Source: Pyrinomonadaceae bacterium (GTDB taxonomy: Bacteria; Acidobacteriota; Blastocatellia; Pyrinomonadales; Pyrinomonadaceae). Taken from it: a DNA stretch of 64,000 nt. Below, piece by piece: positions 417 through 64,000 of the stretch. The stretch lies in NCBI GenBank assembly GCA_036389675.1, contig DASVWI010000022.1, forward strand, positions 1,112 through 65,111, written 5' to 3'. The position numbers were made by a program, and so were the translations under genes. Positions within the stretch are counted from its first letter, which is position 1. Each line of letters opens with the position of its first letter. Under the pieces are notes generated by a model that saw nothing but the letters and a program-made list of their open reading frames with translations, did no database searches and was not told the origin of the DNA.

Positions 417-1841
417 ATGAACACCCGATTCCTAACATTTAGTGCGATAAAATCAGGCTTTTTAGTGGTTTTCCTCTCGCTCGCGCTCTTGCCGGGCGAC
501 GCCTTCGCGACCACGCAAAGCGTGCCTGAGCCCCACCGCGAGCAGCTCCTGAACGGCCTCAACGTCCTGATCTTTAAGCGCGCGGGCGACCCGAACGTCC
601 TCGTCAAGCTACGCATACACAGCGGCGCGGCCTTTGATCTGGCAGGCAAGGCGGGCACGATGGCCCTGCTGAGCGACATGCTGTTTCCAGACCCGACGAC
701 GCGCGATTACTTTACGGAGGAGCTGGGCGGTCGCCTCGACGTGACCTCTGATTACGACTCGATCAACATCACTCTCACGGGCCGCGCCTCGGAGTTTGAG
801 CGCATTGTCGAGTTGCTGAGCCCGGCGCTGGTCAATACTCCATTTGTCCCCGAGACGGTCTCAAGGCTGCGCGACGCCCGCATCAAGGTGGTCAGCGCGA
901 CGGGTAATGTTCCGGGCACGATTGCCGACAGGGCCGTCGCCGCCCGTCTCTACAGTGATTTCCCTTACGGACGCCCCAGCGCCGGAACGCCCGAGACACT
1001 GGCTCGCGTAGAGCGCGCCGACCTGCTCTATGCCCGCGACAGATTTCTCAACCCGAACAATGCCACGATGGTCGTCATCGGCGGCGTGGAAGAGCGCCGG
1101 GCCATGCGAGCCCTCAGACAGCTTCTGGGAATGTGGCGCAAGAGCGATTCGGTTGTGCCCTCGACTTTTCGTCAGCCGGAGCTGCCGGACACGCGGACGC
1201 TTCTGGTTGACCTGCCGGGCACGGAGACAGCCGAAATCAGGCTCGCGACGCGCTCCCTCGCGCGCTCGGACAGGGACGCTTCGGCGGCGGCAATGCTCGC
1301 GCTGCTTGCGCGAGACAGATGGCAGGCCGCGCTCCCGGAGCTTGGCAAGAGCGCCTTCTTCGTCCGAAACGAAGCGCACGTCCTGCCCGGCCTCTTTATC
1401 ATGGGCGCGAGCGTGCGCGCCGGCGTCGCCGCGCAGACCCTTGCGGCGGCGCGCAACGTCCTTCGCACGCTCTCGACCTCGCCGCCCACCACAGTCGAGT
1501 TCGAGCGCGTCAGGAACGAGGCGCTGGCCCTCTTTAATAAACGGCTTGAGCAGCCTGAGACGTTTGCCGATCTCTGGCTGGATGTCGCGACCTACAAGCT
1601 CCCGCCGGTTGCCGATCAGGCGCGGGCCTTCAGTCAGGTCACGCAGGCGGACGTGCAGCGCGTGGCCGCAAAGCTTTTCCGTGATACGCCTGCGGTCGCG
1701 GTCGCAGTCGGCAGCGCCTCCCAGCTTAGCGCAGACCTTGAGCGCGAAGGTAAAGTGGAGGTCATCGGAGCGGCCACCAGCACGCCGCAGGCGATGCCCG
1801 CTCCTTCTGCGACCCCAGCCCCGTCCAAGACCCCTTTTTAA
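417..1841 (+). CDS. M16 (pitrilysin/insulinase) family protein, probably a non-catalytic subunit, secreted
   Basis: 474-aa ORF with an N-terminal signal peptide (...LLPGDAFA). Overall M16-like sequence. The position of the HxxEH zinc motif reads GTMALLSDM, so the catalytic motif is absent. Confidence 0.7.
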   Translation: MNTRFLTFSAIKSGFLVVFLSLALLPGDAFATTQSVPEPHREQLLNGLNVLIFKRAGDPNVLVKLRIHSGAAFDLAGKAGTMALLSDMLFPDPTTRDYFTEELGGRLDVTSDYDSINITLTGRASEFERIVELLSPALVNTPFVPETVSRLRDARIKVVSATGNVPGTIADRAVAARLYSDFPYGRPSAGTPETLARVERADLLYARDRFLNPNNATMVVIGGVEERRAMRALRQLLGMWRKSDSVVPSTFRQPELPDTRTLLVDLPGTETAEIRLATRSLARSDRDASAAAMLALLARDRWQAALPELGKSAFFVRNEAHVLPGLFIMGASVRAGVAAQTLAAARNVLRTLSTSPPTTVEFERVRNEALALFNKRLEQPETFADLWLDVATYKLPPVADQARAFSQVTQADVQRVAAKLFRDTPAVAVAVGSASQLSADLEREGKVEVIGAATSTPQAMPAPSATPAPSKTPF

Positions 1842-1898: not shown

Positions 1899-2633
1899 GT
1901 GTCCGATTGGAAAAATAGCGCCGAAGGCGATCATGCGCGTCGAGTACGCGAAATGTTTAGCAAAATCGCCGCTCGCTACGATCTTTTAAATCACCTCCTG
2001 TCGGGCAATACGGATCAGCGCTGGCGACGGCTTGTTGCGAAGAGATTGCAGGCATCGCTGGCACATGAAGGGGCTCGCGCCTTGGACGTAGCCTGCGGCA
2101 CGGGAGACTTATCGCTGGCTATCGCGCGCGCGACGGGCGCTCGCGTCATCGGCACGGATTTCTGTCGCCCGATGCTTGAGATTGCGTCGCGCAAGAGCGC
2201 TGAGCAGGCGGCCACGATTCCGTTCATAGAGGGTGATGCCTTGCGGCTTCCCTTCGCTGACGGAGCGTTTGATGCCGTCAGCATCGCGTTCGGCCTGCGT
2301 AACCTCGCGAGCGTTGAGGGAGGGTTACAGGAGCTCTGGCGGGTCTTAAAGCCGGGCGGGCGCTGCGCCGTGCTGGAATTTTCCAGCCCCGTCGTGCCGG
2401 GCTTTCGCAGGCTCTTTCAGTTCTACTTTACGCGCGTGCTGCCGCGCATCGGCGGGCTCGTCAGCGGGTCGCGCGGCGCTTATGAGTATCTGCCGGATTC
2501 CGTTTCGCGCTTCCCGGATCAGAAACGCCTTGCCGGGTTGATGCGTGGGGTCGGCTTCGAGGAGGTCGAATACAGGAATTTGACGGGCGGAATCGCTGCC
2601 CTGCACATGGGCACTCGGCCACGTCAGACTTGA
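1899..2633 (+). CDS. ubiE: demethylmenaquinone / ubiquinone C-methyltransferase
   Basis: GTG start. FSKIAARYDLLNHLLSGNTDQRWRR plus the SAM motif LDVACGTGD and a PGGRCAVLEFS block are typical of UbiE/MenG. Confidence 0.9.
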   Translation: MSDWKNSAEGDHARRVREMFSKIAARYDLLNHLLSGNTDQRWRRLVAKRLQASLAHEGARALDVACGTGDLSLAIARATGARVIGTDFCRPMLEIASRKSAEQAATIPFIEGDALRLPFADGAFDAVSIAFGLRNLASVEGGLQELWRVLKPGGRCAVLEFSSPVVPGFRRLFQFYFTRVLPRIGGLVSGSRGAYEYLPDSVSRFPDQKRLAGLMRGVGFEEVEYRNLTGGIAALHMGTRPRQT

Positions 2634-2894: not shown

Positions 2895-3887
2895 ATGAAG
2901 CACACGATCCTTGGTCTCCTACGCCGCATTGGCCTTCTGCTTCTCGTCGTCTGGACTGTCGTGTCACTGGTGACGGTGCTCATAGAGCTTGTGCCGGGCG
3001 ACCCGGCAATCGCCATCCTCGGCGAACAGGCGACGCCGGAGCTGATCGCACAGTTTCGCGAAAAGCACGGCCTCGACCGACCGCCCTTCTTCGTCTCCTT
3101 TCCGCAGGACGCGAGCGGGTCACGCCATCTTCGCTGGAACGGCATGAGCAATCGCTACGTGGAATACTGGCGAGACGTTCTGCACGGCGACATGGGCCGC
3201 TCTTTTCGCACCGACCGGCCCGTGCGCGACCTGATTCTCGAACGTTACCCGGCGACCATAGAGCTGGCGATTGCCGCGCTCATCATCGCCGTCGCCATAG
3301 CCATCCCTCTAGGCGTCGTGGCAGGGAAAAATCGCGGCACGCTGATCGACAATTTTTCGAGCGTCGTCGCGCTCATAGGCATCAGTCTGCCCGGCTTCGT
3401 CATTGGGCCAATGCTGGTCTATATCTTCTCCGTCAAGCTTCGCTGGCTCGCCGCCTCAGGCCGTTTCTATCCCGAAGACATCATCCTGCCAGCCGTCACG
3501 CTGGGCGCAGCGCTCTCCGCCATACTGACGCGCATGGTGCGCTCCTCGGTGATAGAAGAGCTGGGCGAGGATTACGTGCGAACGGCCCGCGCCAAGGGCC
3601 TGAGCGAAAACAAGGTCGTCTATAAGCACGTCCTGAAGAACGGCCTGATTCCCGTGGTCACTATTCTGGGCTTGCAGCTAGGCGTGCTTCTTGCCGGTGC
3701 GATTATCACGGAGAAGATTTTCAGTTGGCCCGGTATAGGGCTGCTGCTCGTTGAGGACGGAATCAATAAGCGCGATTATCGTCTGGTGCAGGGCTGTGTG
3801 CTGGTCATCAGCGTCACCTACATCTTCGCCAACGCGCTCACAGACATGGTCTACCGCTGGCTCGACCCGAGGATAAGAGTGCAGTGA
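2895..3887 (+). CDS. ABC transporter permease, DppB/OppB type
   Basis: 330 aa, 6 TM segments. N-terminal LVPGDPA motif and an EEDYVRTARAKGL EAA-loop block are typical of peptide/nickel permeases. Confidence 0.85.
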   Translation: MKHTILGLLRRIGLLLLVVWTVVSLVTVLIELVPGDPAIAILGEQATPELIAQFREKHGLDRPPFFVSFPQDASGSRHLRWNGMSNRYVEYWRDVLHGDMGRSFRTDRPVRDLILERYPATIELAIAALIIAVAIAIPLGVVAGKNRGTLIDNFSSVVALIGISLPGFVIGPMLVYIFSVKLRWLAASGRFYPEDIILPAVTLGAALSAILTRMVRSSVIEELGEDYVRTARAKGLSENKVVYKHVLKNGLIPVVTILGLQLGVLLAGAIITEKIFSWPGIGLLLVEDGINKRDYRLVQGCVLVISVTYIFANALTDMVYRWLDPRIRVQ

Positions 3888-3991: not shown

Positions 3992-4807
3992 ATGAACCGT
4001 TTAGCTGTTTTTGGATTCGTCGTCGTCGTGATTCTGATCGTGGTCGCGGTCTTTGCGCCGTGGATTGCCACGCAGGAGGTGGGCCAGACCAATCTTCCGA
4101 TGCGTTATCTGCCGCCCTCTGCCGCTCATTGGTTCGGGACGGATTCGACGGGCCGCGATATCTTCGCGCGTGTTGTCTTCGGCGCGCGTATCTCGCTGCG
4201 CGTGGGGCTCACGGTCGTCGCGGTCTCGGCCATCGTCGGGACAATCCTTGGCGCGCTCGCAGGCTACTACGGCGGCTGGCTTGATCGGCTGATGTCCGGC
4301 TATTTGTTCAACGTCTTTCTGGCGTTTCCGGGGCTGCTGCTGGCGATTGCGCTTGTGGCGTTTCTCGGCGCTGGCCTCAACAAGCTGATCTTCGCGCTGT
4401 GCATCATCGGCTGGGTCGGCTACGCGCGCCTGATTCGCGGGCAGGTCTTGAAGGTGCGCGAGTATGATTTCGTGCAGGCGGCGCGTGCCCTTGGCGCGGG
4501 CGATATGCGAATACTCTTTCTGCATATTCTGCCGAACGCCGTGCAACCGCTCATCGTGCAGGCGAGCTTAGGAATGGCAGGTGCGGTTCTGGCAGAGGCT
4601 TCGCTCTCTTTTCTTGGTCTGGGCGTGCCGCCTCCCGCGCCGTCCTGGGGAGTGATGATAGAGGAAGCCCGTGATCTTTCGACGCTTCAGTCCGCGCCGC
4701 ACGCGCTCATCTTTCCCGGTCTGGCGATTGCGCTCACAGTGCTCGCTTTCAATTTCATAGGCGACGGCCTGCGCGAATACTTAGACCCGCGACAGCGCAA
4801 GCGCTGA
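3992..4807 (+). CDS. ABC transporter permease, DppC/OppC type
   Basis: 271 aa. HWFGTDSTGRDIFARVVFGARISL and a YDFVQAARALGA block are typical of DppC/OppC. Confidence 0.85.
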   Translation: MNRLAVFGFVVVVILIVVAVFAPWIATQEVGQTNLPMRYLPPSAAHWFGTDSTGRDIFARVVFGARISLRVGLTVVAVSAIVGTILGALAGYYGGWLDRLMSGYLFNVFLAFPGLLLAIALVAFLGAGLNKLIFALCIIGWVGYARLIRGQVLKVREYDFVQAARALGAGDMRILFLHILPNAVQPLIVQASLGMAGAVLAEASLSFLGLGVPPPAPSWGVMIEEARDLSTLQSAPHALIFPGLAIALTVLAFNFIGDGLREYLDPRQRKR

Positions 4808-4819
4808 GCTTAAAACCTG

Positions 4820-4850
4820 TTGACACCTTTGGCCGCTAAATGATAAATCG
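4820..4850 (+). promoter_or_regulatory. sigma70-like promoter for the Arg-rich ORF
   Basis: Perfect TTGACA at 4820-4825, then TGaTAAATC (extended -10 like) about 17-18 nt downstream. The leader is about 140 nt. Confidence 0.4.
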
Positions 4851-4993
4851 CTGGGGCTCAGAGCTTCTCTCCCTGCTCAAAACTTCCGGGCTACTGCGGC
4901 GAGGCGCTGGTCAGGTCTGCGCGCCTCGGTCGTCCTTGTCTGTAACCCGGCTCTATTCATTCAGTCTCTTAAACCTGTTACCCGGAGGTCAGT

Positions 4994-5365
4994 ATGAAGA
5001 AAACCCTGATTAGCATCGTGCTTTCGACTTTTCTCCTGAGCATGCACGTGCCTGTTGAAGCGAGCGAGGTGAACTCGTCTGCCGAGGAGATGCAGGCGAA
5101 TTCTCTGCCCGTCTCAGTCGCCGCAACGGCATCCTTGCAGTCCATTGGCATCGGTCGCAGGCGAACCGTGCGCCGTCGCCGCCGCGTCATGCGTCGGATG
5201 GTTCGCCGTCGCGTCAGACGCATCAATCGTGGCCGTCAACTGCGGCGCGGAACCTACATGAGGCGCTCGGTTCGTGGCCGCCGTCATCCACGCACCATGC
5301 GCGTCGGCATTGGCATCCCGCGTCGCGTCGGCGTCGGGGTCAGAAGCAGGCGCAGAGGTTTTTAA
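4994..5365 (+). CDS. small protein: Sec-type signal peptide, acidic spacer, polyarginine domain (hypothetical)
   Basis: GGAGG SD 7 nt upstream of the ATG. MKKTLISIVLSTFLLSMHVPVEA/SE is signal-peptide-like. Residues 55-121 contain 32 Arg (48%) and no Asp or Glu. Confidence 0.6.
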   Translation: MKKTLISIVLSTFLLSMHVPVEASEVNSSAEEMQANSLPVSVAATASLQSIGIGRRRTVRRRRRVMRRMVRRRVRRINRGRQLRRGTYMRRSVRGRRHPRTMRVGIGIPRRVGVGVRSRRRGF

Positions 5366-5404
5366 GAGTCCCTGCCGAAACCCGGATCGCCTTTATGGCG
5401 CGGG

Positions 5405-5518
5405 AGATTCAAACGGGGATGGACAGAGAGGGTCAGGATAAAGAAAAAGCTTTAAAGCATTCATGCCTTCATGCTCTCTCTTTATCCTGACGATCTTTGT
5501 CCATCCCTGTTAATTTTC
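5405..5518. repeat. palindromic intergenic element, type A, copy 1
   Basis: Imperfect inverted arms of about 40 nt: GGGATGGACAGAGAGGGTCAGGATAAAGA...TCTTTATCCTGACGATCTTTGTCCATCCC. The loop contains AAGCATTCA. Related to the copy at 7459-7562. Confidence 0.7.
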
Positions 5519-5526
5519 AACTGCTT

Positions 5527-6618
5527 ATGTCATCAGCAGCAATCAAAGAGGAGCAGGGCGCGGCCAATCAAAGGGAGGACGCGCCGTGTGCGGCGACGGG
5601 CCGCGCCGTTGCGGTCGCCATCAAGCAGCTCTCAAAGACGTATCCTGTTTCGCTTGAGCGCCTCAAAAAATTGTTCCGCCGCCCGATCAAGCCTCCCGTC
5701 GAGGCCCTGCGTGATGTCTCCTTCGAGGTGAAGGAAGGCGAAATCTTCGGCCTTATCGGACGCAACGGCGCGGGCAAAACCACGCTGACGAAGATCGTCG
5801 CAACGCTCGTGCAGCCGACAAGGGGCAGCGTCTCGGTCAAGGGCTACGACAGCGTGCGTGACGAAGAAGAGGTTCGCAACCGCATAGGTCTGGCGACCGC
5901 CGAAGAGAGAAGCTTTTACTGGCGGCTGACGGTCGAGCAGAATTTGATGTTCTTCGCGCGGCTCTACGGGCTGCGCGACACGGGCGCGCGCCGTCGCATA
6001 GATGAGCTGATCGAGCGTTTCGAGTTGGGAGAGCTGGCGCGCCGACGCTTCGGCGAGCTTTCGACGGGCAACAAACAGCGCATGGCCTTTGCGAGAGCGA
6101 TGCTGGCGAATCCCCCCGTCCTGCTGCTGGACGAGCCCACGCGCTCGCTTGACCCTCTGGCCGCCGCGCGCATGCGTGCCCTCATTCAATCGCTGGCTAC
6201 GGCGACGCCGCCCGTCTCGATTCTGCTGACCTCGCATAATCTCGTCGAAGTCGAAGAGCTTTGCGCGCGCGTAGCCATCATCAGTCGCGGGCACATTCGC
6301 GCGCTGGACACGCCCGCCCGCCTGCGTGCCCTGCACAAACAGACGGAGCGCATCCAGATAAAGGTGCGCGGCGCGAATGCGGACGGCGTCAAGCGCCTGC
6401 TCACGGACGTGCTGGATGATCTCGAAGTAAAAGACTCCGATGAGACCACTCTCATCACGTTCGCGCGAGAGACGGATGATGACCGGCTGGACGCGGCTGC
6501 CAGAGCCCTGCATGAAACGGGGGCGAGCATCATCTCCTTCGATACGGAACGGGCGACCTTGCTCGAAGTGATGGAGAGCTACGAGCAGGACGAGCAGGGG
6601 GGCGAAGAGAAAAGATGA
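5527..6618 (+). CDS. ABC transporter ATP-binding protein (ABC-2/DrrA type, C-terminal accessory domain)
   Basis: Walker A GRNGAGKTT, signature LSTGNKQR, Walker B LLLLDEP. I prefer the ATG at 5527 over the TTG at 5497, which lies inside the repeat arm. Confidence 0.85.
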   Translation: MSSAAIKEEQGAANQREDAPCAATGRAVAVAIKQLSKTYPVSLERLKKLFRRPIKPPVEALRDVSFEVKEGEIFGLIGRNGAGKTTLTKIVATLVQPTRGSVSVKGYDSVRDEEEVRNRIGLATAEERSFYWRLTVEQNLMFFARLYGLRDTGARRRIDELIERFELGELARRRFGELSTGNKQRMAFARAMLANPPVLLLDEPTRSLDPLAAARMRALIQSLATATPPVSILLTSHNLVEVEELCARVAIISRGHIRALDTPARLRALHKQTERIQIKVRGANADGVKRLLTDVLDDLEVKDSDETTLITFARETDDDRLDAAARALHETGASIISFDTERATLLEVMESYEQDEQGGEEKR

Positions 6619-7445
6619 CGAGCATGCTGCTTTTACTGCGACGCGTGCGCGCCTTCGTCGTGCGTGATTTCCTGCTGGCCGTCAGCTATCGCATGGAGTT
6701 TTTCCTGCGTATGCTCTCGATCCTCATCGCCGTCACGACACTGTTCTTCATCTCGCGCATCTTCGAGGGCTTCGTCAATACCGAATACCCGCAGTGGCGC
6801 AATCCTCTGGCGGCGTGGATTACAGGGCTCGCCGTGCTCAACTATTTCATGACGGGGTTTTCCAGCCTGGCGACCGCAATCAGGCAGGAGCAGACGCAAG
6901 GCACGCTTGAGAGCGTGCTGCTGACTCCGATCAATATGCCGACGATGATCATCGCAAGCTCCGCGTGGGATTTCGTGCAGGCGACGTTCTACTCTTTCCT
7001 GTACTTTTTCTTCGGCTGGCTCTTCTTCGACGTGCATTATCAGGGCAACTACCTGCTCGCTTTCATGTTCCTCCTGCTGACGACGCTGGTGCTGGCCTGT
7101 CTCGGCATACTCTCCGCGAGTTTCGCCATGGTCTTTAAGCGCGGCGACCCGTTCGGGATTTTCCTCGGCACAGGCTCGGCGCTTTTCTCCGGCGTCTTTT
7201 TTCCGACGCAGCTTTTGCGAGAGTATGCGGGTCAGGGCTTCGCCAGCGTCTCGCGCATCCTTCCGCCAACCTACGGGCTCGACGGTATCAGGCGCGTCCT
7301 GATTGAAGGTCAGGGTCTGTCACAGGTGCGCGAGCCGCTTTTGACGCTACTCCTCTTTCTGGCCGTGCTGCTTCCCTTCTCCCTCTGGGTCTTCGGACGC
7401 GCCGTGCGCCGCGCCAAGCGTGAGGGCAGCCTCATTCAATACTGA
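6615..7445 (+). CDS. ABC-2 type transporter permease
   Basis: ATGA start/stop overlap with the ATPase. 276 aa with about 6 TM helices, ABC-2 membrane-protein-like. Confidence 0.8.
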   Translation: MTSMLLLLRRVRAFVVRDFLLAVSYRMEFFLRMLSILIAVTTLFFISRIFEGFVNTEYPQWRNPLAAWITGLAVLNYFMTGFSSLATAIRQEQTQGTLESVLLTPINMPTMIIASSAWDFVQATFYSFLYFFFGWLFFDVHYQGNYLLAFMFLLLTTLVLACLGILSASFAMVFKRGDPFGIFLGTGSALFSGVFFPTQLLREYAGQGFASVSRILPPTYGLDGIRRVLIEGQGLSQVREPLLTLLLFLAVLLPFSLWVFGRAVRRAKREGSLIQY

Positions 7446-7458
7446 GGGCCAGGAAAGC

Positions 7459-7562
7459 AATGAACAGGGACGGACAGAGAGGGTCAGGATAAAGAGAAAG
7501 AGCATGAAGCATTCATCTATTAATGCTTTCGTCTTTCATCCTGCATATCCCTGTTTGAATCC
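7459..7562. repeat. palindromic intergenic element, type A, copy 2
   Basis: Shares AACAGGGAcGGACAGAGAGGGTCAGGATAAAGAGA and the terminal CCCTGTTTGAATC with copy 1. The right arm is shortened. Confidence 0.7.
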
Positions 7563-7674
7563 TCTTCCAGTCTCATCTATTTTAAGCGTTCGGCATTAAA
7601 GGTGACGCCGGGCGCGCCTTTTCGCTTCGGGTCGATTTGATACCTGAGCGCGTAGAAGTTAGTCTGTTTGTGGG

Positions 7675-8442
7675 ATGCGACACTGGATCAAAGTTTGGAG
7701 CTGGGTGCTGGTCGGGGTCTTCATTGGCTGGCTCGGCTATGAGTTCATCACCTTTCCCTCGATCTCAAGGCTGCGGTCTGAGAATCCGGCGACGACTTCG
7801 CTGATCGAGACGCGAATCAAGGAGGCCCGAGCGCGTGGCGAAGAACCGAAGCGTTATCAAATCTGGGTTCCGCTCGAACAGATTTCCCCTCAACTGCAAC
7901 GCGCAATCCTCGCCGGTGAAGACTCCAACTTCGCGACCCACCATGGCTTCGATTACGCGGCCATACAGCACGCGTGGGAAGAGGCCCAGCGAGAGGCCGA
8001 GAAGGAAGCCAAACAGGAGGGCGACGATCAATCGAGCTGGATTCCGGCCATGCCTGACTTCAAGCGCGGCGCGTCCACCATCACACAACAGCTCGCCAAG
8101 AACCTCTATCTCTCGTCGCAGAGGTCTTTCGTGCGAAAGGGGCGAGAGGCCGTCATCACCTATTTTCTCGAACGCCAATTGTCGAAGAAGCGTATCCTTG
8201 AGCTTTACCTCAATATCATAGAGTGGGGCGACGGCATCTTTGGCGCGGAGGCCGCATCGCAATACTACTTTCGCAAACCCGCCTCGCAGTTGACGGCGCG
8301 CGAGGCGGCTTACCTCTCGGCAATGGTTCCCGGCCCGCTGAAAGTCTTCAACCCGCGCCTTAACCCGCGCCGCGTCGCACGCCGCCAGCGCATCATCCTG
8401 CGCGGCATGCCGTCCGTACAGATGCCTCCCGGCACGGGCTAG
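7675..8442 (+). CDS. mtgA: monofunctional peptidoglycan glycosyltransferase
   Basis: N-terminal TM, then EDSNFATHHGFD, GASTITQQLAKNLYLS and RILELYLNIIEWGDGIFGAEAA. These are GT51 motifs, collinear with E. coli MtgA. Confidence 0.9.
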   Translation: MRHWIKVWSWVLVGVFIGWLGYEFITFPSISRLRSENPATTSLIETRIKEARARGEEPKRYQIWVPLEQISPQLQRAILAGEDSNFATHHGFDYAAIQHAWEEAQREAEKEAKQEGDDQSSWIPAMPDFKRGASTITQQLAKNLYLSSQRSFVRKGREAVITYFLERQLSKKRILELYLNIIEWGDGIFGAEAASQYYFRKPASQLTAREAAYLSAMVPGPLKVFNPRLNPRRVARRQRIILRGMPSVQMPPGTG

Positions 8443-28499: not shown

Positions 28500-29270
28500 A
28501 TGAAACACTGCCCCAACTGTTATGCCACCTACGAGGACGACTCGCAGACCTATTGCACGAACGAGGGCACGCGCCTGATAGTAGGCTCAGCGCCGAGGTC
28601 GCAGCCGCAGCCGACGATTCTCTCGCCGACACAGGGGAGCGGCGACCTCACCAGATCATCGGAGTTCTTTCAATCCGGCGGCGCGTCTTCGTCGTGGAGC
28701 GGGTCGTCGCCCTCGCTCGGCAGTCAAAAGCCCTGGTCCATATCGGCGGCGGACGCAGCCTCTACACCGCGCAGATCAAATATGCTCCTGATGATACTGG
28801 GCAGCGTCGCCCTGATGGTCGTCGGCCTGATCGTCGGAATCATGCTCGCCAATCGCAATGCGACGACCAGTCAGGCCGCGCCCGAGCAGCGACCAGCGGA
28901 GACCAGGCCCGAGACCGTGCTGGCGGAATTGAAGGATGTGGAAGGAAAGATCACGGAGGCTAATATCAAGGGGGACAAAACGACGCTTGATCGAATGCTG
29001 GCTGACGAATATATAGCCATCGCCGCCGACGGCAAATCCTATAACAAGGCGCAGACGCTGGCGACGACGGAGACCGCAGACTCCGTCACCTCATGGAGCA
29101 TTGACGGCGCGAAACTGCTCAGCTACGGCAAAGATTCAGCCACGCTCACCGGCATTATCACCTTCAAGACCAGCAACATGGTCGAGCGCCAGCAATTCAC
29201 AGACTCCTTTATCAAGCGAGACGGACGCTGGCAAGCCTTCGCCTCACAAAGCACGGTCTTAAAGAATTAA
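28500..29270 (+). CDS. membrane protein: N-terminal zinc-ribbon-like, TM, C-terminal DUF4440/SnoaL-like domain
   Basis: Start trimmed to MKHCPNCYATYEDDSQTYC. TM is MLLMILGSVALMVVGLIVGIML. The C-terminus (LDRMLADEYIAI...FIKRDGRWQAF) is like the NTF2-fold DUF4440. Confidence 0.6.
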   Translation: MKHCPNCYATYEDDSQTYCTNEGTRLIVGSAPRSQPQPTILSPTQGSGDLTRSSEFFQSGGASSSWSGSSPSLGSQKPWSISAADAASTPRRSNMLLMILGSVALMVVGLIVGIMLANRNATTSQAAPEQRPAETRPETVLAELKDVEGKITEANIKGDKTTLDRMLADEYIAIAADGKSYNKAQTLATTETADSVTSWSIDGAKLLSYGKDSATLTGIITFKTSNMVERQQFTDSFIKRDGRWQAFASQSTVLKN

Positions 29271-29279
29271 CAGGGAGGA

Positions 29280-29380
29280 AAGGCAAGGATGAAGGATGAA
29301 GGCGGAAGGATGAAAAGAATGCTTCTCTTTCTTGAGAGCTTTTACTTCATCCTTCATCCTTCATCCTTCATCCTTTATCT
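29280..29380. repeat. GGATGAA-arm hairpin element, type B, copy B1
   Basis: Left arm AAGGCAAGGATGAAGGATGAAGGCGGAAGGATGAA, right arm TTCATCCTTCATCCTTCATCCTTCATCCTTT. Fills the convergent gap 29271-29383. Confidence 0.75.
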
Positions 29381-29383
29381 TCT

Positions 29384-30250
29384 CTATTCCCCGCCGTACC
29401 TGATCTCCATCCGGCGAATCTGTAGACTGGCGAAAGCAAGCAGCAGCCCGGTCATGATTAAGAGGGTCGGGACGGCAACCCATGCCGGGGTCGGCTCGGC
29501 GACGATGGCGAATGGGCCTTCGGCGAGAGGAAGCGGCGAGAGCGATTGCAGGTAATGAATCACGCTCAGCTTTTTAAGGAGCGGCGGAAGCAGGAAGTTG
29601 ATGAACTCCCAACCATAGACGGCGAGCGCAGGGATAATGGGATTGCGAAAGAGCAAGCCTATCAGAAGAAAGACCGCGCCGTAGCCGGCGCACGCCAGAG
29701 CCGTGATCGCCAGATAGATGAGCGCGTACCTTAAGCCGTGCCCCTCGACAAGAAGTTTCATGCTGGCGCTGTAGCCTAGCGGCAGGTAGAGCAGTAGTAG
29801 CGAGACGGCTGTGGCCGAGACGAAAAGGATGAGCGAGGTCAGCAGGCCCGAAAGATATTTCCCGACGACCAGCACTTCCCTCCTGAGCGGCGAGAGAAAG
29901 TAATAGTGCAGGCTTCTGTCCACCACTTCGCCGCGAAAGAGATTCATAAATATCCAGGCGCAGCCGAAGAAGACGACCGTCCTCAGAATCAGTATCTCGT
30001 AGATGCCTGCGAACATCATGTTCAGGAAAGCCGGCTCGGCACGGCCTCCCACGTCCGGCGGAATCAGCGCTATCGCCGAGAACAGCAGGACGGGCAGCAG
30101 CGCGAGCAGGTAGATCAGTATGGCACGCCTGCCCCAGAAATTTTTCTTCACCTCAAGCCTGAGGATGGCAAGCACCTGCCGCATCCATAGAGTCCAGGGC
30201 AGCCCTTCCGCGGGCTTTGTGACGACGCTCGTGTCGGCCCGGCTGCTCAT
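29384..30250 (-). CDS. ABC-2 type permease-like membrane protein
   Basis: 288 aa with about 6 TM segments. 4-nt overlap with the upstream ATPase gene. Confidence 0.75.
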
Positions 30251-50679: not shown

Positions 50680-50782
50680 AAGCAAGGATGAAGGATGAAG
50701 GCGGAAGGATGAAGTAAAAGCATTCAATGCAGTTGAAGCTTACCTTTCATCCTTCATCCTTCGGCCTTCATCCTTTCCCTTC
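50680..50782. repeat. GGATGAA-arm hairpin element, type B, copy B2
   Basis: AAGCAAGGATGAAGGATGAAGGCGGAAGGATGAAGTAAAAGC...TTTCATCCTTCATCCTTCGGCCTTCATCCTTT. Occupies the whole 103-nt gap between two convergent stop codons. Confidence 0.8.
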
Positions 50783-62211: not shown

Positions 62212-64000
62212 ATGAACATGAAGCACACAACCCCGGCAAACTCTCCCTCGGCTTCGCGGCTTTTCAGGTCGAACCGTTACATGAAACAGATGATGAATAC
62301 CGTCAACCACACCGCTACACGCCTGACGGCTCTCCTGCTGCTGGTCGCCTTCACGTTCTCGCTCGTGGGCGGCATCAACACCGGCGCGCAAACGAGAAAG
62401 GGCTCACAGAAGGGCGGCAGGACGAGCGCACCCAGAACGGACAACGTATCTTCCGACCTGCGCGAGCGCCTGCGCAACGCAAGATCGGGCGAAGAGACGG
62501 CGAGCGTAATCTTGCAGCTCGACGGCGCGGAGAGCGGCCCGCTCAATGCCCTGCTCAATCGCAACGGCGTTCACAGCAAGGGCCAATTTCGCAATCTTAA
62601 CGCGCGCGCTGTCCAGCTCCCCTTAAGCGTCATAGAGGAATTGGCTTCGCACCCGGAAGTCGGCTACGTCTCTTTGGACAGGCAGATTCAACCGAGCGGC
62701 ACGGGCCACATCGAGACGACCACAGGCGCGACGGTCCAGCGCACAGAGTCAGCTACGACAACGACCGCATCCTCAACCCTGCTCGGACTGGTCTCGACGA
62801 CGACCACCACAACGACCACGACCACCTATGACGGCAAAGGCATCAACATCGCCATTCTTGATTCGGGTTTGGACCTTACCCATAAGGAATTCAACGGCGG
62901 CAATCGCATCGCCTACAGCAAGGACTTCACGGGCGAAGGCCGCACGGATGATCCGTACGGGCACGGCACGCACGTCGCTTCAGCCGCTATCGGCGCTACC
63001 GACCCTTACGGCGGCATCGCCCCCGGCGCTAAAGTTATCAACCTGCGCGTGCTGAATTCCAGAGGCATGGGCACAGTCTCCGGCGTGTTGAGCGCGCTCG
63101 ACTGGGTCATGACCAACAAAGGAACTTACAGCATCCGCATCGTCAACATGAGCCTCGGCGCGCCCGCCGTCGATTCCTACAGGAATGACCCGATCTGCCG
63201 AGCCGTGCGCCGCCTCGTCGACGCTGGCGTCGTCGTGACGGTCGCCGCCGGAAACAACGGCAAAAACGCTGCCGGTCAAAAAGTCTACGGGCAGATTCAT
63301 TCGCCCGGCAACGAGCCTTCGGCCCTGACCGTCGGCGCAACCAACACCTTCGGCACGGACGCGCGCAATGACGACGGCATCACAAGCTTTAGCTCTCGTG
63401 GGCCGACACGCAGCCACTGGACGGACGAGTCGGGCGTCGTTCACTACGACAACCTGATTAAGCCCGACATGGTTGCGCCCGGCAATAGAATCATCTACGG
63501 CGAATCCGACTATAACTATCTCGTCACACAGAATCCGTCGCTCGACGCAGGCGTCAGCGATAGGGACGACCGAAGAATGATGTACCTGAGCGGTACGTCC
63601 ATGTCTGCCCCGATAGTCGCGGGCGCGGCGGCCATGTTGCTTCAGGTCAACCCGAACCTGACGCCGAATCTGGTCAAAGCGATACTGATGTACACGGCGC
63701 AGCAGCTGAGCGGCTTCAACACTCTGGAACAGGGCGCGGGCCAGCTCAACATCGAAGGCGCGATGCGTCTGGCAAAGGTAGTCCGCACTGATCTCTCCAA
63801 CAATACGCCGCTCGGCGACCCGCTGTTAAAGAGCGGTGCCAGCGCCCCAGTTCCGCAAACCACCATCGCCGGGTACAGCTTTCCCTGGTCTCAGGGGCTG
63901 ATCATGGGCCACACCTTCGCCACCGGCACGGCCCTGATGACCAAGTACCAGAAGATTTACGGCACTGGCATACTGGTCGGCGACGGCATCCTCGTCGGTG
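62212..64000 (+). CDS. second S8 serine peptidase, paralog of the upstream gene, 3' end outside the window
   Basis: Not in the ORF track because no stop falls in the window. My frame-1 translation gives ILDSGLD, HGTHVAS and GTSMSAPIVAGAAAML, and ends in GILVGDGILVG repeats. Start could be 62212, 62218 or 62281. Confidence 0.85.
   Translation, partial: MNMKHTTPANSPSASRLFRSNRYMKQMMNTVNHTATRLTALLLLVAFTFSLVGGINTGAQTRKGSQKGGRTSAPRTDNVSSDLRERLRNARSGEETASVILQLDGAESGPLNALLNRNGVHSKGQFRNLNARAVQLPLSVIEELASHPEVGYVSLDRQIQPSGTGHIETTTGATVQRTESATTTTASSTLLGLVSTTTTTTTTTTYDGKGINIAILDSGLDLTHKEFNGGNRIAYSKDFTGEGRTDDPYGHGTHVASAAIGATDPYGGIAPGAKVINLRVLNSRGMGTVSGVLSALDWVMTNKGTYSIRIVNMSLGAPAVDSYRNDPICRAVRRLVDAGVVVTVAAGNNGKNAAGQKVYGQIHSPGNEPSALTVGATNTFGTDARNDDGITSFSSRGPTRSHWTDESGVVHYDNLIKPDMVAPGNRIIYGESDYNYLVTQNPSLDAGVSDRDDRRMMYLSGTSMSAPIVAGAAAMLLQVNPNLTPNLVKAILMYTAQQLSGFNTLEQGAGQLNIEGAMRLAKVVRTDLSNNTPLGDPLLKSGASAPVPQTTIAGYSFPWSQGLIMGHTFATGTALMTKYQKIYGTGILVGDGILVG

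Follow-up and report, generated by a model that had tools for sequence, protein, structure and literature searches.

A small gene of Pyrinomonadaceae encodes a predicted Sec-type signal peptide followed by an arginine-only tail

We analyzed a stretch of 64,000 nucleotides (nt) from a Pyrinomonadaceae bacterium (GenBank assembly GCA_036389675.1, contig DASVWI010000022.1), which is called the window in the following, and a small open reading frame (ORF) within it. The ORF is located between a pair of DppB- and DppC-like permease genes and a two-gene operon for a DrrA-like ATP-binding cassette (ABC) ATPase and an ABC-2 permease; the coordinates of all features are collected in Table 1. The encoded protein of 123 amino acids has three parts. 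It begins with a Sec-type signal peptide composed of MKK, the 14-residue hydrophobic core TLISIVLSTFLLSM and HVPVEA, which is followed by SE. With Pro at position -4, Val at -3 and Ala at -1, the c-region of this signal matches the features of signal peptidase I (SPase I) substrates at the predicted cleavage site. The linker (residues 24-54) contains three Glu and no basic residue, which results in a net charge of -3. The remainder is rich in Arg; residues 55-121 include 32 Arg (32/67, 47.8%) and no Asp, Glu or Lys. The ORF and its 48% Arg domain without acidic residues had been noticed in a preliminary description of the locus, and both are confirmed here. That description also called the segment of about 30 residues behind the signal anionic. 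Three Glu and a net charge of -3 are indeed present, but for a spacer with only three Glu the term is an overstatement.

The richness in Arg is by itself not beyond chance in a window with 60% GC. The highest chance Arg content occurs in an out-of-frame ORF on the minus strand (63143-63340), which lies inside a longer ORF and encodes 29 Arg in 67 amino acids. Because Arg-rich ORFs arise by chance in such DNA, it is the comparative evidence that decides whether the small ORF is a gene. The ratio of nonsynonymous to synonymous substitution rates (dN/dS), estimated over nine orthologues by the Nei-Gojobori method, is 0.21 for the whole ORF; by segment it is lowest in the signal (0.08), the best conserved region, and reaches 0.20 in the Arg domain and 0.28 in the linker. 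Among 103 ungapped codons the numbers of variable sites at codon positions 1, 2 and 3 are 56, 41 and 94. All gap runs in a frame-blind nucleotide alignment (50/50, with lengths of 3, 6, 9, 12 or 18) are multiples of 3. The Arg codon usage is similar to that of the neighboring genes, and the GC content at third codon positions is just lower (0.69 versus 0.70-0.79). In four genomes in which several genes were compared, the ORF has a dN/dS of 0.19-0.27 versus 0.04-0.07 for DppC, 0.06-0.11 for the ABC-2 permease and 0.10-0.15 for UbiE; it evolves 2-5 times faster than these three genes.

These patterns show that the small ORF is a genuine gene under purifying selection. The opposite view is that the ORF is spurious and that the Arg tract is a by-product of CG-rich non-coding DNA or of out-of-frame reading. 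It can refer to the out-of-frame Arg-rich ORFs of the window, which reach the 29/67 mentioned above. It is contradicted by the dN/dS of ~0.2 in each segment, by the excess of variable sites at third codon positions and by the gaps, all of which respect the frame. The start codon, the ribosome-binding site and the C-terminal motif are all conserved, the family comprises ~90 clusters of homologues, and within the window the Arg tract is not a simple DNA repeat; nor does it hold that the tract is a non-coding CGN repeat. We regard a spurious ORF as practically dismissed; the comparative data already refute it. Sequence features and conservation thus bear out the proposal of the preliminary description that a Sec-type signal and a polyarginine domain are joined in a real small gene.

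Homologue searches, which the preliminary description had suggested, uncovered a family. A search of 5.8 billion proteins returned 46 clusters of 102-176 amino acids with 56-100% identity; none of them has a functional name, and the named sources are metagenome-assembled genomes of Pyrinomonadaceae or Acidobacteria. Only 22 clusters came out of an exhaustive search with a profile through 1.84 billion representative proteins. A second, word-indexed search brought the family to a total of ~90 clusters (46 close and ~40 distant), and every member with a source name is again from Pyrinomonadaceae or Acidobacteria. When one genome per GTDB species was scanned, the small ORF was present in seven species, all of which are Pyrinomonadaceae. 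Additional metagenome loci were collected by a scan with an alignment of the RRYR-type subfamily. No match for the ORF or its subfamilies was obtained in Pfam, NCBIfam, PADLOC, PHROGs and PDB sequence-profile searches or with tblastn against plasmids and phage genomes. A Pfam scan of the window protein and 25 diverse members gave nothing above threshold, and no paper on Arg-rich proteins with a signal peptide from Acidobacteria or Pyrinomonadaceae turned up in the literature searches. The preliminary description, which knew of no described bacterial family of this kind, is in agreement with these database results. Together, the searches show a family that is apparently confined to Pyrinomonadaceae and a design that is conserved across its members.

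The close members of the family conserve the signal peptide MKKTLITIVLSTFLLSMPV-x-SE(A/G), the junction LQSIGIGRRR between linker and tail, and the C-terminus IPRRVGVGVRRRRRG(Y/F); the linker is variable. Strictly invariant residues at the junction are Q49, G52, I53, G54, R56 and R57. The distant members, with 73-112 amino acids, have the same three-part design. Over the wider family the proteins have 73-126 amino acids, with a signal that is well conserved and an Arg-only tail that evolves fast. Their N-terminus consists of MK[KR] and a hydrophobic core that ends in ...PV-x-[SA]-E-[AGS]-R-[ED]. In nearly every member of the whole family the protein opens with MK[KR], and in most of them Ala, Gly or Ser follows the conserved Glu at the predicted cleavage site. 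The linker of the family has 19-36 residues (median 30) and is rich in Ser, Ala, Gly, Pro and Thr; where it meets the tail, or close to that point, there is usually a Gln. The tails of the distant members are 25-73 residues long and contain 43-65% Arg. Tails of different subfamilies cannot be aligned, and their short repeats differ (RRRWG x3, RRYRV x5-6, RRERRRD). The 84 tails inspected have 2207 Arg and 0 Lys. For neighboring proteins the ratio K/(R+K) is 0.24, and the N-termini of the family proteins themselves do use Lys. In one related locus (L017, 6140-6235) the DNA that encodes the RRYRV repeats is a tandem array of a 15-nt unit (TATCGCGTGCGTCGT), of which three copies are identical and three nearly so; this shows recent in-frame growth of the Arg tail. 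Judged from these comparisons, the tail is shown to be constrained in composition and not in sequence.

Three further details of the family are worth recording. A Gln is kept at the junction of linker and tail or just ahead of it (LQSIGIG, FQR, PQ[YF]R). In 72/84 members the protein ends with an aromatic residue, His or Met (45 with Tyr, 12 each with His and Met, and 3 with Phe). The conservation of [AS]-E-[AGS]-R-[ED] at the predicted cleavage site exceeds what SPase I needs. The junction Gln, the terminal residue and the cleavage-site motif may be signs of further processing at a second site or of a recognition tag at the C-terminus.

Other types of N-terminal signal were considered. A twin-Arg motif (S/T-R-R-x-F-L-K) of the Tat pathway is absent; no RR precedes the hydrophobic core, and nearly all members have MKK or MKR at this place. 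A lipobox is not indicated, as the family has no conserved Cys and the few members with PCEA carry it outside a lipobox context. A prepilin-type signal was rejected by inspection, with Gly absent at -1 and Glu absent at +5. An AlphaFold2 model calculated with 36 sequences has a mean predicted local distance difference test score (pLDDT) of 56.7 and a predicted template modeling score of 0.17. Only the signal helix is predicted with confidence (pLDDT ~81). A helix of low confidence spans residues 58-93, coil makes up the remainder, and the model as a whole is mostly disordered. The two Lys ahead of the hydrophobic core and the Glu-rich sequence behind it predict an orientation with the N-terminus inside and the C-terminus outside. 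We also considered the linker as a second membrane helix, which would create a hairpin with both termini inside and satisfy the positive-inside rule. This idea was dropped because of the polarity of the linker: over 15 residues its highest Kyte-Doolittle mean is 1.28 in the window protein and ranges from -0.49 to 1.46 in the family, often below 1, and the hydrophobicity is not kept from one subfamily to the next.

The DNA upstream of the ORF contains conserved elements for expression. The arrangement TTGACA-N15-TGnTA(A/C)A is unchanged in all nine orthologous loci of the alignment, in which the surrounding intergenic DNA has diverged. In the window the -10 region reads TG (4841-4842), A and TAAATC (4844-4849); the TG, the TA and the next A are invariant over the nine loci. 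A scan of the window for consensus promoters and terminators called neither for the small ORF. Because the scanner called no site, the claim rests on conservation, on which grounds TTGACA and the extended -10 element are the likely promoter of the small gene. The promoter proposed in the preliminary description is in this way upheld by its invariance, and so is the GGAGG Shine-Dalgarno sequence that had been listed with it, the GGAG core of which is found in 9/9 loci. The 5' untranslated region (UTR) gave no sign of a conserved RNA structure. A single-sequence fold was not significant (z = 0.02), and the alignment fold had 8 invariant pairs and zero covariation. In Rfam the window region matched no family for the 5' UTR and gave only chance microRNA-like matches to the long hairpin described below; four related loci gave no match. 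A riboswitch or RNA thermometer in the 5' UTR was hence dropped as a candidate, given the z value of the fold and pairs that do not covary.

The spacer between the small ORF and the ABC ATPase contains a hairpin repeat of 100 nt with a very stable fold. A second copy is located at ~7463-7565 behind the ABC-2 operon, so that two copies bracket the two genes. The two ~105-nt copies are 75% identical, with a long identical core that includes GGACAGAGAGGGTCAGGATAAAGA, and the repeat looks like an intergenic element of the type of miniature inverted-repeat transposable elements or repetitive extragenic palindromes. By conservation (TTATGTCATCAGCAGC) the ATPase starts at the ATG at 5527, which is outside the repeat; the mechanically predicted ORF begins at a TTG at 5497. 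No Shine-Dalgarno sequence is evident ahead of this ATG. In 7/9 relatives (L003 at ~7428-7532 and the spacers of L004, L007, L008, L009, L010 and L012) this position upstream of the ATPase has a different, conserved element, which the repeat replaces in the window; the element is also missing from L001 and has no Rfam match. It consists of GGTTTACTGTC-N-CTTGCCTGTAAACTCGAACGGCGC, a variable hairpin, GCGCCGTTC and a T-rich run up to the ATPase ATG. Its promoter-like motif is TTTACT-N16-TGTAAACT, and the long GC-rich hairpin and the T-rich run come after this motif. The whole resembles a promoter that is followed by a 5' leader or a terminator-like hairpin. Because this promoter-like motif sits in the spacer between ORF and ATPase in 7/9 relatives, it suggests that the ABC operon is transcribed separately from the small ORF. 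Elsewhere in the window, at 29270-29397 and 50684-50775, there are long intergenic inverted repeats of GGATGAAGG-type units, with arms of 24-45 nt and 76-96% complementarity, which may represent another family of hairpin repeats.

Table 1. Features of the small ORF and of its surroundings in the window (positions are those of the window).
Feature	Position	Strand	Remarks
M16-like protein	417-1841		upstream of UbiE
UbiE	1899-2633		
DppB-like	2895-3887		
DppC-like	3992-4807		directly upstream of the small ORF
-35 hexamer TTGACA	4820..4825	+	invariant in 9/9 orthologous loci, with diverged flanks
Extended -10-like element TGATAAATC	4841..4849	+	15 nt past the -35 hexamer; family consensus TGnTA(A/C)A(T/C)C
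Putative 5' UTR, ~138 nt	4856..4993	+	conserved motifs CTTCTCTCCC (4864-4873) and TCTCTTAA (4965-4972)
Ribosome-binding site GGAGG	4984-4988	+	5 nt ahead of the ATG
Small ORF	4994-5365	+	ATG 4994, TAA 5363-5365; 123 amino acids encoded
Sec-type signal peptide MKKTLISIVLSTFLLSMHVPVEA	4994..5062	+	codons 1-23; next part starts at 5063; predicted SPase I cleavage after VEA
Ser/Ala/Pro-rich linker	5063..5155	+	codons 24-54; net charge -3; ends in LQSIGIG
Polyarginine domain	5156..5362	+	codons 55-123; 32 Arg; conserved end IPRRVGVGVRxRRRG[YF]
Stop codon TAA	5363..5365	+	
Hairpin repeat element, 100 nt	5412..5511	.	not part of the gene; very stable fold, z = -8.6
DrrA-like ABC ATPase	5527..6618	+	downstream neighbor; start is the conserved ATG 5527
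ABC-2 permease	6615-7445		
Transglycosylase MtgA	7675-8442		followed by a roadblock-domain gene and then pilQ

The surroundings of the gene were compared between relatives. In every relative of the window type the block from the M16-like gene through pilQ is collinear; adjacency within this clade therefore says little, and the distant lineages are the informative ones. The RRYR-type members are positional orthologues. The DppC gene is directly upstream of them in L017 and L019 and also in 8/8 metagenome loci that include the upstream flank. Their downstream side varies: L019 and L029 have the ABC ATPase, L017 has a VWA gene on the reverse strand and then MtgA, in L021-L024 and L030 MtgA comes after the small ORF without ABC-2 genes, and contig P0069 has DppC, the small ORF and then a gene for a PALP enzyme. 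The syntenic locus L020, from a Pyrinomonadaceae-like lineage, has DppB, DppC and, after 9 nt, the genes for the ABC ATPase and the ABC-2 permease (4110-6831), with overlapping genes elsewhere; no member of the family is present anywhere within its 12.8 kb. Because the two pairs are contiguous in L020, the DppBC pair and the ABC-2 pair may be one operon, into which the small gene was inserted in other lineages.

Two subfamilies of paralogues reside in other surroundings. In L013-L016 the gene points away from a divergent OmpA-domain gene beside a HisKA kinase gene, and genes for a DUF5670 protein, an FG-GAP propeller and an OmpR-type regulator come next; upstream there is a promoter-like motif, and the stop codon is immediately followed by a clear terminator. 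The second subfamily (L018) is beside a gene for a GIDA-family (PF01134) flavoprotein. Both have their own strong ribosome-binding site.

The preliminary description had combined the small gene and the ABC-2 genes into a unit of producer and exporter or immunity system. The comparison argues otherwise, with orthologues that have no ABC-2 genes (L017, L021-L024, L030 and P0069), transporters in L020 without the ORF, paralogues in unrelated contexts and a separate promoter-like element in 7/9 relatives. The ABC-2 permease moreover has 1413 clusters of homologues versus ~90 for the ORF family. From this gene order the link to ABC-2 is lineage-specific and not a property of the family, which places the exporter outside the system. 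The label 'Sap-like' for the upstream permeases did not hold either, as the best scores of DppB and DppC are to nickel/oligopeptide permease models and the Sap models rank low. The adjacency to DppC, which is constant among the positional orthologues, may be simple inertia of gene order because the unrelated adjacency of UbiE and DppB is equally constant. As a side observation on this neighborhood, the M16-like protein seems by eye to lack the zinc-binding motif HxxEH and has GTMALLSDMLF instead; it carries its own signal peptide and may be a non-catalytic periplasmic homologue of M16 proteins.

The reading that we favor, with a probability of roughly one half, is that the protein is an exported, disordered polycation that binds a polyanion in the envelope or outside the cell. 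In this scheme the MKK, the 14-residue core, the Pro and the small residues at -3 and -1 would constitute a cleavable Sec signal with its N-terminus in the cytoplasm. Positive charges in the early mature region block the start of export, and the linker of 31 uncharged to weakly acidic residues would act as a spacer that holds the Arg away from this region. SecA would then move the Arg-only tail of ~70 residues slowly across the membrane. The mature protein of ~100 amino acids would be intrinsically disordered, or become helical upon binding, and it would function by composition rather than by fold, through multivalent guanidinium contacts with a polyanion. Candidates for the latter are lipopolysaccharide or lipid phosphates, acidic exopolysaccharide, extracellular DNA and polyphosphate. 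The vertical inheritance at a fixed site and the purifying selection argue for a physiological role in the envelope or matrix, which fits better than a bacteriocin; the inheritance is supported by the fixed syntenic position and by the lack of any plasmid or phage match.

Several points weigh against this reading. The preliminary description had called the topology of the protein puzzling, and rightly so. Passage through SecYEG is reported to be slowest by far for Arg, which is rate-limiting in vitro, and Lys to escape the slow passage by deprotonation; Arg is also reported to be under-represented among Sec substrates (Allen et al. 2022, PMC9110029). A tail with Arg only and no Lys is the worst possible cargo for Sec, and it could be that the tail is not meant to cross. 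In a host with two membranes a Sec signal reaches only the periplasm, and a route across the outer membrane is not evident. None of the data indicates a binding partner. Furthermore, generic Sec signals are usually less conserved than this one, a hint that it has an additional role. It is the poor quality of the tail as a Sec cargo that keeps three other readings alive: a tail that stays in the cytoplasm, a device on the Sec channel and a re-import through DppBC.

It is possible, though rather unlikely, that the tail is not exported at all and that the N-terminal segment targets or anchors the protein at the inner membrane with the tail on the cytoplasmic face. The partners of the tail would then be anionic lipids, nucleic acid, polyphosphate or the cytoplasmic parts of sensor kinases or permeases, much as DUF1127 proteins are reported to act on PhoR. 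The difficulty that SecYEG has with Arg, in tails that use Arg only and never Lys, speaks for this view, as does the unusual conservation of the signal, which would be expected for specific membrane contacts. It is also in line with the paralogues beside a HisKA kinase and an OmpR-type regulator, with the constant position of the orthologues after the DppBC permease genes and with the report that Arg-rich DUF1127 proteins bind a membrane kinase (PMC12648545). However, the charges around the core predict the C-terminus outside, no second hydrophobic segment is available to bring it back (linker Kyte-Doolittle means <=1.46), the Pro and the small residues at -3 and -1 are of the type of cleaved signals, and no member matches the DUF1127 model. 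A half-threaded chain, moreover, would jam SecY rather than settle in a stable topology. A related and unlikely idea is that the protein is a Sec substrate that was selected to stall in SecYEG or to be rejected by it. It would serve as a device for translocon occupancy or membrane potential, for example as a stress-induced brake or a sensor of secretion capacity, or the cleaved tail would fall back into the cytoplasm; both variants would set it apart from ordinary exported proteins.

The remaining alternatives assign a role to the neighboring genes. In one of them, which we consider doubtful, the product is a secreted cationic antimicrobial peptide with a prepro layout, and the DppBC importer and/or the ABC-2 proteins provide export or self-immunity. 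The constant adjacency to DppC among positional orthologues and the ABC-2 genes downstream in the window-type lineage, L019 and L029 would suit such a unit. In animal gene families for antimicrobial peptides and toxins the signal is conserved and the mature part diverges fast, as is the case here, and in their combination of Arg with Trp, Tyr or Val the tail repeats are similar to known Arg-rich antimicrobial peptides. Yet many of the orthologues and all of the paralogues lack ABC-2 genes at their side, the transporters of L020 occur together in the absence of the ORF, and 1413 clusters of the ABC-2 permease stand against ~90 of the ORF family. The fixed-site vertical inheritance is unlike that of patchy, mobile bacteriocin loci, the permeases are of the nickel/oligopeptide and not the Sap type, and no outer-membrane route is evident. 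The propiece also cannot neutralize the tail because a net charge of -3 faces +32; across 84 members the spacers have net charges of -4 to +2 and the tails 15-36 Arg. The notion in the preliminary description of an anionic pro-piece that neutralizes the polycation is therefore not tenable. A loop of export and re-import, in which Sec exports the protein, periplasmic processing follows and Arg-rich fragments return through DppBC as a signal or for recycling, is very unlikely. The analogy is with the Phr peptides and Opp in Bacillus. An ORF with a Sec signal directly downstream of an oligopeptide-type permease in every positional orthologue invites this idea, and the conserved Gln junction ahead of the tail is a possible processing site. 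But paralogues occur without DppBC and L020 has DppBC without the ORF; the equally constant UbiE-DppB adjacency means that the position is perhaps inertia. A tail conserved in composition only gives no specificity for signaling, and a receptor gene is not apparent. Least probable of these, in our view, is a secretion monitor or a leader that regulates in cis like SecM, VemP or MifM; translation or translocation of a nascent chain that is hard to export would then control the downstream ABC-2 operon via mRNA structure. The N-terminal signal, the conserved C-terminal motif near the stop codon, the strong RNA structures between the ORF and the ATPase start, and a polyarginine chain that is plausibly slow in translation and translocation are compatible with this reading. 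On the other hand, the downstream genes are not Sec or YidC components, and the structures in the window start at least 46 nt past the stop codon, which we judge to be outside the reach of a paused ribosome. The structure in the window is a repeat element that is also found after the operon, and a separate promoter-like motif for the ABC operon exists in 7/9 relatives. Many orthologues and all paralogues have no downstream gene to regulate, in many members no gene of the same strand follows, and several have their own terminator.

The favored reading, an exported polycation, can be compared with known systems. The precursors of animal cationic peptides (defensins, cathelicidins and frog-skin peptides) have the same order of signal, intervening segment and cationic C-terminus, and likewise a conserved signal and a fast-diverging cationic part. 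They differ from the present family in that the latter has no charge balance (-4 to +2 in the intervening segment against +17 to +36), a tail of 25-73 residues with ~50% Arg and without Lys or Cys, a bacterial host with two membranes and no sequence homology to them. Protamines share with the family runs of ~50% Arg that are broken by small or hydrophobic residues, the disorder, which is predicted here, and a function that is likely set by composition. However, they lack a signal peptide and their site of action is inside the cell or nucleus, whereas this family has a conserved Sec-type signal; there is no homology. Sec-dependent bacteriocins, like the present proteins, are small, cationic, ribosomal products with a general Sec signal and no dedicated leader or ABC exporter. 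They are known from Gram-positive bacteria and are folded products with much Lys and Gly, whose genes lie next to immunity genes on variable or mobile loci. In contrast, the gene described here is vertically inherited at a fixed site, with no conserved partner gene and no plasmid or phage match. The DUF1127 proteins are not known to have a signal peptide and are much less Arg-rich. They are bacterial Arg-rich small proteins as well, and one paralogue subfamily here neighbors a HisKA kinase; yet they are Proteobacterial proteins of 47-54 amino acids, and their Pfam model is matched by no member of this family. DUF1127 (YjiS-type) proteins are reported to act at the membrane on sensor kinases such as PhoR, with the distribution of charge being more important in them than single residues (PMC12648545). 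With SecM, VemP and MifM the window ORF has in common its small size, an N-terminal export signal, a conserved C-terminal segment and a position upstream of transport genes. It differs from them by a downstream DrrA-like ABC ATPase instead of Sec or YidC, by a hairpin 46 nt past the stop codon and by many stand-alone members of the family. A phage holin or small phage membrane protein is not indicated, with no PHROGs or phage-genome match and a chromosomal housekeeping context. The family is conserved and unannotated; in its presumed function it comes closest to prepro cationic peptides or to a protamine that carries a signal peptide, but it belongs to neither group.

The hosts of this family are abundant and barely cultured soil Acidobacteria. 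If the tail is exported, the protein would be a natural and extreme test of how SecA and SecYEG move a long stretch of fixed positive charge against the membrane potential. It would also define a new class of exported bacterial polycations, with a possible role in organizing the envelope, exopolymer or extracellular DNA. Without export of the tail, the family would represent a novel type of device that acts on the Sec channel or at the inner membrane face. With either outcome these bacteria have a conserved, unannotated family of small proteins with a very simple design.

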